This document shows positions 12,006-15,263 of a stretch of DNA of 64,000 nt, piece by piece (the first letter of the stretch is position 1; each line of letters starts with the position of its first letter). Source of the DNA: Raillietiella orientalis. Lineage: Eukaryota. The position numbers were made by a program, and so were the translations under genes. The notes below the pieces were generated by a model that saw nothing but the letters and a program-made list of their open reading frames with translations, searched no databases and had not been told where the DNA came from. Location of the stretch: the NCBI GenBank assembly GCA_036172245.1, contig JAYWIR010000029.1, forward strand, positions 620,001-684,000, read 5' to 3'.

Positions 12006-12730
12006 TTAGTCTGTGGTTTCTTCCTCATCATGATTTGACGTATGCCAAGTGAGACGTTCTTCATAAAACTGAATCACAACCTGGGGACACTTGATATTAG
12101 CAATTTTCGCTGGTACAAGATCTGCTTCATCTGATCCTTTCCTACAAATAACAGTACCATAGTTAATACCTACTGTTAAGCTATTATTAAGGTTACTACT
12201 TACCATTTGATCAGAAACATGAGTTCTCCACTAGAATCAGTTGCTCCTATAATTCTTTCAGGATCTAAACCTCTATCAAATCCTCTTGGTTTGTTATCTT
12301 CCTGCAATTATCGATAAGAACACAAAGACATGAGCAAACATACATTACATCTATAGATTTTTTTTTGGTTTTCTTGCCAGTATCACCTTCAGCTGGAACT
12401 GATTTTCGCTTTTTTTCATCCTTTTTGTCCTCCTTTTTCTCTTTTTCTTTCAACTTCCTAGATTCCTCAAACTGGGCTATAAGGTCGGGGCAATCAAGAT
12501 TTTCCTTTGGTTCCCAAGTGTTTTCCTCGCTTGAAGTGGACATTGATTAATAAATATTCATTAGGAAATGAACAACGGCCTCACTTTGAATAGCCCTTCC
12601 ATTTTAGATAGTACTCTACTTTGCCGTTACGTATTCTCTTATCCAGTACTTTTTCCACTGAGAATTCTTCTTCTTGAGTTTCTTCTTCTGGACTGGGTGA
12701 TCTGGACCTGTCTTTGTTTTTTCGCGCCAT
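12006..12730 (-). CDS. HP1: Heterochromatin protein 1 (HP1 / chromobox CBX1-3-5 family), 186 aa, 4 coding exons
   Basis: Exons 12730-12585, 12529-12349, 12301-12204, 12141-12006 (561 nt), joined by GT-AG introns of 55, 47 and 62 nt. Translation: [71 protein letters not shown] (chromodomain), a K-rich hinge with KRKS, then [62 protein letters not shown] (chromoshadow domain), stop TAA. Confidence 0.97.
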
Positions 12731-12737
12731 TTTTTTC

Positions 12738-13205
12738 TATAGAAAAAAAAATGAAAAAAAAAAAAAATTGAAGATGCGTTTAAAGTTTCATTTTTCTCTT
12801 GATATTTGGGGTGCTCCTCGTCATTACATGTCTCGACGGACGTAATCATGTAACTACGTTTGCAAAATGCAGTGACTGACCCAGAAAAGCTGCACATTAA
12901 AAATAAAGGTGGATGTATGCTTGCAATAGTAATTAAAAACATGAACTGCCAACTCCAGATAAAAAAAAAAAAAATTGAAACAAAATGAAAACACTGGAAG
13001 CTCAAACGCAAACATTGCTTTACGTACTTAGTATATTCGGCTTGTAGAAAGCAAGCAACTTAAGCGTTCCTTAAGTATTTCAATTGATTTAGGATACAGT
13101 AATTTCGTCATTTTTTGGATCGATGAAGTTATTTTGTGGCACAGAGATACAAAAGAGTAAAACAAATACGGAATTTTCTCTTTTCAAGAAATCAAAAGTA
13201 CTTAC
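12738..13205 (-). other. Putative 5'UTR intron of the HP1 gene
   Basis: Minus-strand donor GTAAGT at 13205-13200; long T tract plus CTATAG acceptor ending 7 nt before the ATG at 12730. Implies a non-coding first exon upstream of 13206. Confidence 0.6.
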
Positions 13206-13583
13206 TCAAAGTGTACACATCTTCCCGAGCTCACGAACTGTACTTGACGAGCACAACCCGCGAAAAATTGCACAAAGCTTGTAAGTTCATTGCTTAAAGC
13301 GAATTTGAACTACGATTGTTTTTAGTTGCTTGGCCTGTTTTATTTAGTGGTTGCTCAAATTAGTGGAGTAATTTCTGAAATATATTCCAAAAAATAATAA
13401 CGTGATGTGTTGCATTTTTTTCAGCATTATTAAGTACTTTCTTGATTTTCTGTTTTTAATAAGCTGTTTGTTATATTAAAGTTGCGGAATATGCGATAAT
13501 TGTTGAAACGTCAATGGTAACAAGCTTCCATTTTATCGTAGCGTCTCAAAAGATATAACGGAAAGAAAAGTTTTTCTGCCACA
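13206..13583. promoter_or_regulatory. Bidirectional promoter region and 5'UTRs shared by HP1 (-) and hnRNP A/B (+)
   Basis: The two ATGs diverge with 853 nt between them. The interval keeps CpGs while both gene bodies are CpG-poor. It contains an E2F-like TTTCGCGG (minus strand, about 13258-13265), a CHR-like TTTGAA (13304-13309) and a YY1-like CCATTTT (13528-13534). Transcription start sites cannot be placed exactly. Confidence 0.7.
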
Positions 13584-15263
13584 ATGGGAATTCCGGTAAG
13601 CAGCTTATTTCAAATTGTGCAACTGTTGATGTTTAAGATTGCATCTATCAATAGAGTGCAGTTTTGTGTGATTTTGTGCGAGAGATAGCAACTTGTCGTT
13701 GCTGTTCTAGCTTCTAAGTTAACCTGTAATTTGAAAAATTGTATCACATAGTAATTAATTAAAAGTACTCCACCAGTGATGTGTAATCCATGATTGTAAT
13801 GAATAAATAGTTTCTGAGTAGAGCAACGTAAAATTAGATTCACATAAGATTTTGATTAGTTTTGTATATATTGCAATTATTTAATCTCTCAATAGAAAGG
13901 GGAAAAACCAGAGCCTGAGCAGTTCAGGAAGCTTTTTATAGGTGGTCTTGACTATAGGACTACGGATGAGACATTGAAGAAACATTTTGAGCAATGGGGA
14001 GAAATCGTGGATGTAGTAGTTATGAAAGATCCCAAAACTAAAAGATCCAGAGGCTTTGGGTTTATAACTTATTCTAGGGCATATATGGTTGATGACGCGC
14101 AAAATGCTAGACCTCATAAAGTCGACGGAAAAGAAGTTGAGCCTAAAAGAGCTGTACCTAGAGAGGTAATTTTACTAAAACGTATTCTTAAGTTTTTGAA
14201 AAACGTAAATCCTTATTGTTATAATTGTGGGTTTGTGTTTTCAAGACTAGAGGTCATGGATATTTCTGAAATATGTCCTCATTTGCTAATGTCTGTTCAA
14301 CGATATAAAATAGTTTTTAATTATATAGGATATAGGTAAACCTGAGGCAGGAATAACATCGAAGAAATTATTTGTTGGAGGTGTCAGAGATGACATAGAA
14401 GAAGAAGATCTTAGACAATACTTCTCTGAATTCGGGAAAGTTATAACTGTTAATATGGTGACAGAGAAAGGAACAGGCAAAAAAAGAGGTTTTGCCTTTG
14501 TAGAGTTTGATGATTATGATCCTGTGGATAAAATAGTTTGTGAGTGTTATAAAACTGATCTGTAAAAAGAGTAATACATTTATTAGTGAGAAAAGGCCAG
14601 CATTATGTTAAAGATTATCGTATGGATGTCAAAAAAGCTTTAAGTAAAAACGAAATGGCAACAATGAAATCCAAAGGTCCAGTTAGTGAAAGTCGTAGTA
14701 GTAGAAGTAGTTCAGGCAGTCTTCGTAGTTCGATTCCAGGACCTTGGAATAATACTCCTAGTAGAAGCAGCTCTAGTGGTGGTGGAGGTAGTTGGGGAGG
14801 AGGTGAGATAAAGAGCTACAAATCTGCATTAGTCTCAGCGTTTTCAGGATATAATAATAGTCCTTGGGAAAGTCAAAGCCCAGGAGGAGCATGGGCACAA
14901 GGCAACCTTAGTGCAAATAATAGTGGCTGGGATGGCCCTAGTCAGGGATATAGCAATGCAGGTATAGAATGTAGGCATAGCATCTCTTGGCATATCAGTA
15001 TTGAATTCCTCAATTAGACTTTCTTGGTGGAGGTTCTAATTGGGGAGGAACATCCAGCTTTGGCCAAAATTATCAGCAGGGATATGGAGGAGGGCCTCTG
15101 AGGGGCTATAGTGGAGGCAGTGTTAGCAGCCGCTCAGCCCCATATGGTAAGAAAAACTTATTTAGTTAGGATTTGGTATTATTTTGGCCCAGGATCTGGT
15201 GGTGGCTATGGAGGTGGTGGAAGCAATAACAGTTATAGAGGTTATGCTGGTCGTCGCTACTGA
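13584..15263 (+). CDS. HNRNPA1: Heterogeneous nuclear ribonucleoprotein A/B family (hnRNP A1/A2B1, Hrb98DE/Hrb87F-like), 340 aa, 7 coding exons
   Basis: Exons 13584-13595, 13896-14165, 14329-14539, 14587-14802, 14848-14961, 15018-15146, 15193-15263 (1023 nt), all GT-AG. RRM1: [49 protein letters not shown]...[12 protein letters not shown]2: [11 protein letters not shown]...[20 protein letters not shown]...DVKKALSK. Gly/Ser low-complexity tail with an M9/PY-NLS-like GGGPLRG...RSAPYG, ending [14 protein letters not shown] is the arthropod form of RRM1. Confidence 0.96.

Follow-up and report, generated by a model that had tools for sequence, protein, structure and literature searches.

A head-to-head HP1–hnRNP A gene pair in Raillietiella orientalis, a probable arthropod copy of an ancient bilaterian pair

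An HP1 gene, for a chromatin protein, and an hnRNP A-type gene, for an RNA-binding protein, lie head to head in the genome of Raillietiella orientalis. This raises the question of whether they correspond to the human CBX3-HNRNPA2B1 and CBX5-HNRNPA1 pairs and whether the short DNA between them has the chromatin-opening property of the human A2UCOE. The analysed DNA, referred to below as the window, is a stretch of 64,000 nucleotides (contig JAYWIR010000029.1, positions 620,001 to 684,000), in which the two genes occupy positions 12006–15263. Probably, the locus is an arthropod copy of an ancient bilaterian HP1-hnRNP A pair, diverging from a compact shared promoter that works as an ordinary bidirectional housekeeping promoter.

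Structure of the two genes and of the interval between them

The minus-strand gene encodes a protein of 186 aa with the domain makeup of HP1, Chromo plus Chromo_shadow in Pfam. Its CDS of 561 nt is divided among four coding exons and ends with a TAA stop codon, and in the exon model, read from the sequence, all three internal introns are of the GT-AG type. The ATG exon (12585..12736, with the ATG at 12730 and the coding part at 12730–12585) encodes the N-terminal half of the chromodomain, and coding exon 2 (12349..12529) encodes its C-terminal half and a Lys/Glu-rich hinge. Pfam PF00385 (Chromo) matched coding exon 1 at profile positions 1–27 (E 1.5e-7) and coding exon 2 at positions 29–52 (E 9e-6), both matches exceeding the curated cut-off. 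Coding exon 3 (12204..12301; Chromo_shadow E 5e-5) contains the end of the hinge and the start of the chromoshadow domain, while the last coding exon (12006..12141; Chromo_shadow E 4.7e-16) contains the C-terminal chromoshadow part and an acidic tail, with the TAA at 12008–12006. The chromoshadow profile PF01393 was matched on exons 3 and 4, and in the translation the charged hinge sets the chromodomain apart. The best PDB matches of the chromoshadow exon 12006..12141 were CBX1 (61.7 bits), CBX5 (56.1 bits), and CBX3 (55.7 bits).

The plus-strand gene extends from ATG to stop over 13584..15263. Its spliced model comprises seven coding exons (13584–13595, 13896–14165, 14329–14539, 14587–14802, 14848–14961, 15018–15146, and 15193–15263) with a total of 1,023 nt encoding 340 aa, and all introns are GT-AG. 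Pfam RRM_1 was found on exon 2 (E 5.3e-17) and exon 3 (E 3.1e-16), and the tail, from residue ~200 to 340, is Gly-rich and of low complexity, with abundant Gly, Ser, Asn, and Tyr. The RRM1 exon scored 175 bits with hnRNP A1 and 162 with A2/B1, followed by D-like (110), DAZAP1 (86), Musashi (75), and hnRNP A/B (70), and the nearest named relatives carry the labels "hnRNP A1, A2/B1 homolog" or "87F". Judged by its sequence, this gene is of the hnRNP A type (A0/A1/A2B1/A3; Hrb87F/Hrb98DE of insects) and not D, A/B, DAZAP1, or Musashi.

The gene structures were compared over 11700–15600 with contigs from two public runs, which were 95–99% identical to the window and so belong to a different strain or a close relative. 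The source runs share 0.16 and 0.10 of words with the stretch, and the RNA nature of one of them is a guess. Such assembled contigs are informative on splicing, not on start sites or expression levels, and their cover was absent at 13272–13795 among others. Six introns were confirmed across the two genes. In HP1 the contigs skip 12142–12203, joining 12141 to 12204, as well as 12302–12348 and 12530–12584 (2/2 runs), and in the hnRNP gene they skip 14166–14328, 14540–14586, and 14962–15017. Loose ends of contigs agree with the joints of hnRNP exons 1/2 and 4/5.

The HP1 ATG begins at minus-strand position 12730 and the hnRNP ATG at plus-strand position 13584, so the gap 12731–13583 is indeed 853 nt long, as stated in the initial annotation, and no further Pfam-bearing ORF lies between HP1 and the hnRNP gene. 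The 5' end of HP1 is probably split. In the ATG exon, six 5'UTR bases follow an acceptor AG at 12738–12737, and contigs of both runs span 12585–12735 plus 41 or 57 extra 5' letters. Since the depth in the bin 13141–13271 (41 nt in run X1 and 57 nt in run X2) equals the number of these unplaced letters, we infer an HP1 5'UTR intron, although the joint itself was lost at an A/T repeat. This putative intron (12737..13206, minus strand, 470 nt) has its GT at 13206–13205 and the above-mentioned AG, both read from the sequence. The predicted non-coding first exon (13207..13263, minus strand; GC 0.53, 5 CpG) is given in its minimum extent, and the true start may be further upstream. Near this end, at 13258–13265 on the minus strand, lies the E2F-like TTTCGCGG, which departs from the strict form of the consensus by one mismatch.

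The HP1 5' end would therefore extend to at least ~13263, and no more than 320 nt would remain for both core promoters up to the hnRNP ATG. This putative shared divergent promoter interval, 13264..13583, has a GC content of 0.31 and 9 CpG (CpG o/e 1.23); it is 320 nt at most and would also take in the hnRNP 5'UTR. A motif scan with consensus sequences found no TATA, DRE, Ohler-1/6/7, or E-box motif in the interval. Two CGATA cores occur at 13494 and 13534, but the scan gave no more than the chance expectation and no recognisable motif common to both promoters. The repeat scan of 12700–13900 revealed A/T-rich short matches only.

Neighbouring genes were sought with Pfam on 417 stop-to-stop ORFs of the window, with a minimum length of 60 aa in 1–22 kb (130 ORFs) and 22–36 kb (145 ORFs) and of 110 aa in 36–64 kb (142 ORFs). 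The first batch excluded 15 ORFs overlapping HP1 and the hnRNP gene, and ORFs of 60–109 aa beyond 35.8 kb were outside the scan. No neighbour gene was found among these ORFs, the sole match being a weak, sub-threshold one to AP3D1 beside a poly-A run. The window likewise yielded no homeodomain-like motif, Rfam family, or tRNA.

Conservation of the pair in animals

In human, CBX3/HNRNPA2B1 and CBX5/HNRNPA1 are described as bidirectional-promoter pairs with a promoter region of about 0.4 kb (Vad-Nielsen 2016; PMC4721113). HNRNPA2B1-CBX3 is also named among the metazoan conserved ancestral microsyntenic pairs (CAMPs), for which linkage was demanded in at least four lineages, all vertebrates being taken as one (Irimia 2012; PMC3514665). 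The same families in the same orientation as in the human pairs, together with the published CAMP status (PMC3514665), support the proposal of the initial annotation that the pairing predates the protostome-deuterostome split. The ancient HP1-hnRNP A pairing is already in print, and the locus is an ordinary further member of a known conserved pair. The window HP1 would be the pro-orthologue of vertebrate CBX1/3/5, and the hnRNP gene that of HNRNPA0/A1/A2B1/A3.

Homologues in other arthropods were inspected through locus tags and contig sizes. In Gryllus longicercus, HP1 (R5R35_011323) and hnRNP A (R5R35_011324) have consecutive locus tags, which reflect annotation order, not orientation. The HP1 and hnRNP homologues report the same longest contig in Anabrus simplex (527,018,133 bases) and in Bacillus rossius (84,311,336 bases). 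Different longest contigs are reported for the HP1 and hnRNP matches in Periplaneta americana (183,760,178 vs 218,890,426) and Coccinella septempunctata (20,753,350 vs 33,488,718), so some insect HP1 paralogues are not linked to the hnRNP A gene. In trees that were unrooted and built from sequences other than vertebrate CBX proteins and outgroups, both window proteins were placed among arthropod homologues of single domain architecture, with moderate branch lengths of 0.33 and 0.46, and outside the hexapod clades. The window pair is thus probably a non-insect one, and a deep division of the arthropods separates it from Gryllus.

Metagenomic data were also scanned with the HP1 profile. Of 586 matched stretches, 222 were confirmed and 80 loci kept. 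The hnRNP gene was found by tblastn on none of the 80 loci, and all 19 loci of at least 2.5 kb showed a single uninterrupted HP1 HSP. These loci are cDNA-like (transcripts or retrocopies) and therefore uninformative on synteny either way. Among prokaryote genome contigs, two chromodomain-only loci were found, with chromoshadow or RRM domains in neither.

Could the adjacency be secondary in this lineage, merely resembling the vertebrate arrangement? In Periplaneta and Coccinella, some HP1 paralogues lie on other scaffolds than the hnRNP A gene, which is in line with this, as is the frequent duplication and movement of HP1 genes in insects. On the other hand, the homologues are adjacent in Gryllus by their locus tags. 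We roughly estimate the odds of this divergent two-family adjacency arising by chance at about 1 in 1000, assuming ~15,000 genes and a few paralogues of each family. The same families occur in the same divergent orientation and with sub-kb spacing at two human loci (PMC4721113), and conservation of the pair across four or more metazoan lineages has been published (PMC3514665). An independent or chance juxtaposition is thus extremely improbable.

Common descent by itself does not require coupling between the genes. The ancestral pair could have been kept only passively, its tiny gap being rarely broken, with neither selection for co-regulation nor coupling of the promoters. Consistent with this are the intergenic target of 320 nt at most, the failure to find a common promoter motif, and the finding of Irimia 2012 that slowly evolving genomes keep most CAMPs, against 46 kept in flies and 12 in nematodes (PMC3514665). 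The keeping of pairs thus follows the overall rearrangement rate. However, human HNRNPA2B1 and CBX3 are reported to be strongly co-expressed, with r = 0.84 and rank 100, among the strongest of the conserved pairs (PMC3514665). The pair also survives in two vertebrate paralogons (PMC4721113), and 5'-5' orientation is enriched, characterizing 54.8% of conserved pairs vs 26.7% of controls (PMC3514665). Purely passive retention is unlikely on these grounds.

We favor active maintenance of the ancestral pair, in which the compact promoter region of no more than 320 nt would drive both genes divergently. With so little space for two core promoters, any breakpoint between the genes would damage the promoter of a broadly needed gene, and this cost, together with co-regulation of both products, could keep the pair together.

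CpG profile and the chromatin-opening property

The CpG o/e ratio changes sharply along the locus: it is ~1.0 in the flanks, 0.3–0.4 in the HP1 body, 1.0–1.25 in the promoter, and 0.1 in the 3' half of the hnRNP gene, and reaches 1.2 again at 16750. The HP1 body with its 3'UTR region (11000..12584, minus strand) contains 14 CpG vs 35.9 expected, and the hnRNP body with its long 3'UTR region (13896..16700, plus strand) contains 27 vs 94 expected; for both regions, 0 of 2,000 shuffles were as low. The effect concerns CpG specifically at 14750–15999, where CpG o/e is 0.09–0.13 whereas GpC o/e is 1.0–1.5. AATAAA signals are present in both 3' regions, at 11811, 11604, and 11056 on the minus strand for HP1 and at 15463, 15912, and 16077 for the hnRNP gene. 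The interval 13206–13583 has a GC content of 0.34 and 0.037 CpG per nt, which is no more than its composition predicts (P = 0.15 for shuffles to attain the count seen), and its CpG o/e of 1.2–1.3 does not set it apart from flanking intergenic DNA (o/e ~1.0).

As far as base composition can tell, two depleted gene bodies around an undepleted promoter are what gene-body methylation usually leaves behind in invertebrates. Germ-line methylation would be targeted to both gene bodies, and the CpG o/e of 1.3 suggests that the promoter interval is unmethylated, as is probably all flanking DNA.

The initial annotation had read the AT-rich interval of ~380 nt as a candidate miniature, CpG-island-free UCOE (ubiquitous chromatin-opening element). 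Such an element would actively resist heterochromatin and protect transgenes from silencing. Several features agree with this reading. The interval is undepleted in CpG between two strongly depleted gene bodies, and it contains the putative divergent promoters from which two broadly needed genes are transcribed. The divergent gene arrangement of a UCOE is present, as seen from both gene structures, and both genes are represented in the RNA-derived contigs of two runs. The position is homologous to that of the human A2UCOE and of the proposed "A1UCOE" (PMC4721113).

Against this reading, the definition of a UCOE demands a CpG island free of methylation (PMC2629730), and 13206–13583 is not such an island, given its low GC content and CpG density, its lack of enrichment, and its likeness to the flanking intergenic DNA. 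Furthermore, a 674-bp fragment with CBX3 only, from which the HNRPA2B1 promoter is missing, is reported to retain anti-silencing activity; its authors credit the methylation-free CpG island and regard the dual promoter as dispensable (PMC4330381). The CpG density was 0.095 in functional and 0.086 in non-functional human fragments (PMC4330381), and the value of 0.037 in the window interval is lower than both. Nor does the word "miniature" hold, since it compared unlike things: the human promoter region also measures ~0.4 kb, and it is the multi-kb CpG island that reaches into the genes (PMC4721113). Among the titles listed for UCOEs together with insects or Drosophila, none concerned an invertebrate-derived UCOE, which also counts against this reading. 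Moreover, a promoter in a genome methylated only in its gene bodies is not embedded in methylated DNA that it would have to keep out. The sequence does not favor a CpG-island-free UCOE, and we regard this reading as very improbable.

A related scheme keeps the openness and drops the island. The AT-rich interval might act as a bidirectional promoter that suffices by itself and stays open independently of its CpG content, and the pair might owe its persistence over more than 500 million years to a joint action of HP1 and hnRNP A, which would have to be made in step. In Drosophila, HP1a interacts with HRB87F, the hnRNP A1 homologue, and HRB87F suppresses position-effect variegation dominantly (PMC2743825). 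Under this scheme, UCOE-like anti-silencing activity of the element might come about through a CpG-independent route. We consider this scheme very improbable. In the favored view, the interval works as a bidirectional housekeeping promoter of the ordinary invertebrate type and need have no special chromatin-opening property.

Significance and comparison with known systems

The locus is a clean, RNA-supported arthropod example of a published ancient gene pair. By itself it raises no new question: its conservation has been published, and nothing but positional homology underlies the idea of chromatin opening. It does present the invertebrate state of the UCOE locus, a tiny AT-rich promoter, probably unmethylated, between two CpG-depleted gene bodies, which is useful for thinking about the origin of the vertebrate CpG-island version. 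For transgenesis in arthropods, the interval is also a candidate housekeeping promoter of compact size.

In Drosophila, the HP1a and HRB87F genes are presumably not adjacent. The two fly proteins are homologous to the families found in the window, and their interaction offers a possible reason for co-regulation of the pair.

The human CBX3-HNRNPA2B1 and CBX5-HNRNPA1 pairs resemble the window in both families, a chromo plus chromoshadow HP1 and a two-RRM, Gly-rich hnRNP A-type protein. They are likewise head to head, with an inter-promoter distance of ~0.4 kb in human vs at most 320 nt here (PMC4721113), and the human HP1 genes share with the window HP1 a non-coding first exon, a predicted one in the window. 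The human loci flank HOXA and HOXC, whereas no homeobox was detected in the 64-kb window. The promoters of the human pairs are embedded in a GC-rich CpG island of 2.6 kb within an otherwise methylated genome (PMC4330381), whereas the GC content of the window promoter is 0.31–0.34 and the CpG-depletion footprint is confined to the gene bodies. The A2UCOE and the minimal CBX3-UCOE agree with the window interval in homologous position and in dual divergent promoters (putative here) of broadly expressed genes but differ in GC content (0.34 in the window vs >0.5 required), in CpG density (0.037 vs 0.095), and in methylation context. The window pair also resembles the 5'-5' co-regulated CAMPs of Irimia 2012, whose genome set presumably did not include this species: like them, the two genes are adjacent, arranged 5'-5', and separated by an intergenic distance of <1 kb (PMC3514665).

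Structure and transcript support of the gene pair

The HP1 gene is encoded on the minus strand by four coding exons (12730-12585, 12529-12349, 12301-12204, and 12141-12006) separated by GT-AG introns, with a coding sequence of 561 nt (186 aa). Its chromodomain is split between exons 1 and 2 and its chromoshadow domain between exons 3 and 4, and all four Pfam matches exceed the curated cut-offs. Among solved structures, the best match of the last exon was CBX1 (61.7 bits), followed by CBX5 (56.1 bits) and CBX3 (55.7 bits), while the nearest named relatives of the protein were found in insects (68%–75% identity). 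The intron 12302-12348 contains a perfect TATCGATA palindrome at 12309-12316 that matches the Drosophila DRE/BEAF-type consensus; a scan of 12737-13900, and thus of the shared promoter, found no copy of this motif.

The hnRNP gene is located on the plus strand and comprises seven coding exons (13584-13595, 13896-14165, 14329-14539, 14587-14802, 14848-14961, 15018-15146, and 15193-15263), all introns being of the GT-AG type. The encoded protein of 340 aa has two RRM_1 domains (Pfam), and its tail is dominated by low-complexity sequence with abundant Gly, Ser, Asn, and Tyr. Since the RRM1 exon was most similar to human hnRNP A1 (175 bits) and A2/B1 (162 bits), the gene belongs to the A type; a D-type or A/B-type identity was ruled out by the lower scores of hnRNP D-like (110 bits) and hnRNP A/B (70 bits), and DAZAP1 and Musashi scored 86 and 75 bits. 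Named homologues in insects share up to 92% identity with this exon, and the homologue P0050 up to 78% with the RRM region. A 21-nt tandem repeat (2.7 copies, 97% identity) is present at 15535-15590 in the 3′UTR region. The start codons at 12730 (minus) and 13584 (plus) are separated by 853 nt, exactly as described in the initial annotation of this divergent pair.

Parts of the window are shared with two public sequencing runs (word shares 0.16 and 0.10), of which one is a metatranscriptome and the other is only guessed to be RNA. Their contigs are 95%–99% identical to the window, with mismatches mostly at every third base, and therefore derive from a different strain or a close relative. The contigs skip three HP1 coding introns (12142-12203, 12302-12348, and 12530-12584) and three hnRNP introns (14166-14328, 14540-14586, and 14962-15017), and loose contig ends fit the joints of hnRNP exons 1/2 and 4/5. 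The HP1 contigs stop at 12735 and carry 41 (run X1) or 57 (run X2) extra 5′ letters, and the depth in the bin 13141-13271 corresponds to exactly 41 and 57 nt of the HP1 contigs. Together with the GTAAGT donor at 13206 and the CTATAG acceptor at 12738-12737, read from the sequence, this indicates that the HP1 gene has a 470-nt 5′UTR intron and a non-coding first exon extending from 13207 to at least 13263, both of which we infer, as the contig joint across this intron was dropped at an A/T repeat. Therefore, the distance between the HP1 5′ end and the hnRNP ATG is at most 320 nt (13264-13583).

Conservation and retention of the pair

A metazoan-wide microsynteny survey (Irimia et al. 2012, PMC3514665) considered a pair conserved when its genes were linked in at least four lineages, vertebrates together counting as one, and its text lists HNRNPA2B1-CBX3 as one of the conserved pairs with the strongest co-expression (r = 0.84). 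The proposed ancient origin of the pairing is thus supported but is not new, having already been published. In excerpts of Vad-Nielsen et al. 2016 (PMC4721113), both human pairs are bidirectional, and the CBX5 counterpart element is named "A1UCOE." In the available portion of the hagfish genome paper (PMC10927551), Cbx and Hnrnpa are counted among the genes syntenic with Hox, and their amphioxus orthologues serve as outgroups. The literature search found no paper on the HP1-hnRNP A pair specifically in arthropods.

In Gryllus longicercus, HP1 (R5R35_011323) and hnRNP A (R5R35_011324) have consecutive locus tags, which reflect adjacency in annotation order and say nothing on orientation. The two homologues of Anabrus simplex are assigned to the same chromosome-scale contig, as are those of Bacillus rossius. 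The HP1 and hnRNP matches of Periplaneta and Coccinella were located on different contigs, which argues against universal linkage. Scans of metagenomes and prokaryote contigs yielded nothing usable on pairing. Several metagenome loci matched by the HP1 profile (L004-L008, L012, L023, and L043) are contigs of 4.5–10.5 kb with a complete intron-free HP1 frame mid-contig and no RRM gene, and could be long transcripts or, alternatively, retrocopies of HP1 carried by arthropod DNA in the metagenomes. The locus is a well-documented further instance of this known and conserved gene pairing.

In the HP1 tree (31 rows), the window protein groups with a tick and two copepods (97/93), all partners on long branches, outside two insect clades. 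The hnRNP tree (26 rows), in which the window's hnRNP was represented by residues 1-200, places it beside an environmental protein and outside the Collembola-plus-insect clade (88/88). We take these data, with moderate confidence, to indicate an arthropod outside the hexapods. The hnRNP A-linked HP1 proteins of the cricket, katydid, and stick insect share one insect clade (86/76), the HP1 proteins of the cockroach Periplaneta, Coptotermes, and Hymenoptera fall in the second (89/56), and termite proteins occur in both (tree including the homologues P0121-P0250). This distribution weakly hints that HP1 was duplicated long ago in insects, with a single copy retaining its hnRNP neighbor.

According to the best-supported reading, a compact shared bidirectional promoter region would serve two broadly needed genes and leave hardly any space for a neutral breakpoint between them, with co-regulation being the probable selective reason for retention. 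More speculatively, retention could also reflect cooperation between the HP1 and hnRNP A products: the Drosophila hnRNP A1 homologue HRB87F is an interaction partner of HP1a and dominantly suppresses position-effect variegation (PMC2743825, in excerpt).

Genomic surroundings and CpG profile

The pair forms an AT-rich valley (GC 0.27–0.41 over 10–17 kb) amid unusually GC-rich DNA. The flanks (1-4000 and 22000-64000) reach a GC content of 0.65–0.74 with CpG o/e near 1, and the very compact genes (introns of 47–470 nt) lie next to DNA that is GC-rich, unique, and apparently non-coding over more than 40 kb. No Pfam domain above threshold was found in 417 ORFs of the flanking DNA. The sole match, to AP3D1 (ORF at 9148-9333, E 5.6e-4, 20.5 bits against a cut-off of 28.2), is most likely a poly-Lys artefact, with a 46-A run at 9275-9320 inside the ORF. 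The longest flanking ORFs have random-looking Arg/Pro/Ala/Gly-rich translations. Rfam families, tRNAs, homeodomain-like motifs, and internal repeats of at least 60 nt, except one weak 67-nt inverted pair, were missing in the flanking DNA, and no Hox gene was present within the window.

CpG o/e is about 1.0 in the flanks (0.97 window-wide), 0.3–0.4 in the HP1 body (11000-12500), 1.0–1.25 in the promoter block (12750-13750), about 0.1 in the hnRNP 3′ half and 3′UTR (14500-16700), and 1.2 from 16750, while GpC o/e across the same windows is near or above 1. The HP1 body contains 14 CpG versus 35.9 expected, and the hnRNP 3′ part 16 versus 76.6, none of 2,000 shuffles being as low in either case. 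The CpG-specific depletion (o/e 0.1–0.4) covers 11000-12584 and 13896-16700, 3′UTRs included, and ends sharply at ~11000 and ~16750. In broadly expressed invertebrate genes, methylation of gene bodies in the germ line typically leaves CpG-depleted bodies beside unmethylated promoter and intergenic DNA. The depletion of both transcribed regions suggests such methylation, and its ends at ~11000 and ~16750 mark the likely transcript ends.

The probable shared promoter and human chromatin-opening elements

The initial annotation proposed a miniature, CpG-island-free ubiquitous chromatin-opening element (UCOE). The interval 13206-13583 has a GC content of 0.34 and a CpG density of 0.037 per nt (0.032 in the ATG-to-ATG gap), and promoter CpG is not enriched beyond composition (27 versus 22.6 expected, P = 0.15, shuffles). 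Therefore, the shared interval is not a CpG island by composition, and its CpG is not special relative to its flanks. A scan for core-promoter consensus motifs revealed only two CGATA cores, a single TCT-like match, and, at the HP1 5′ end, an E2F-like site, none above chance expectation.

The "miniature" contrast with human fades, since the human inter-promoter distance is also ~0.4 kb; excerpts of PMC4721113 give 0.4 kb for the CBX3/hnRNPA2B1 bidirectional promoter region. The only testable defining feature of a UCOE, the CpG island, is lacking here, and positional homology would be the sole argument for such a function. In the available text of Mueller-Kuller et al. 2015 (PMC4330381), a 674-bp CBX3-only fragment was still anti-silencing without the HNRPA2B1 promoter, CpG density was 0.095 in the functional fragment and 0.086 in a non-functional one, and a methylation-free CpG island was implicated, the dual promoter being dispensable. 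Dissection of the human element thus points in the direction opposite to a UCOE lacking a CpG island.
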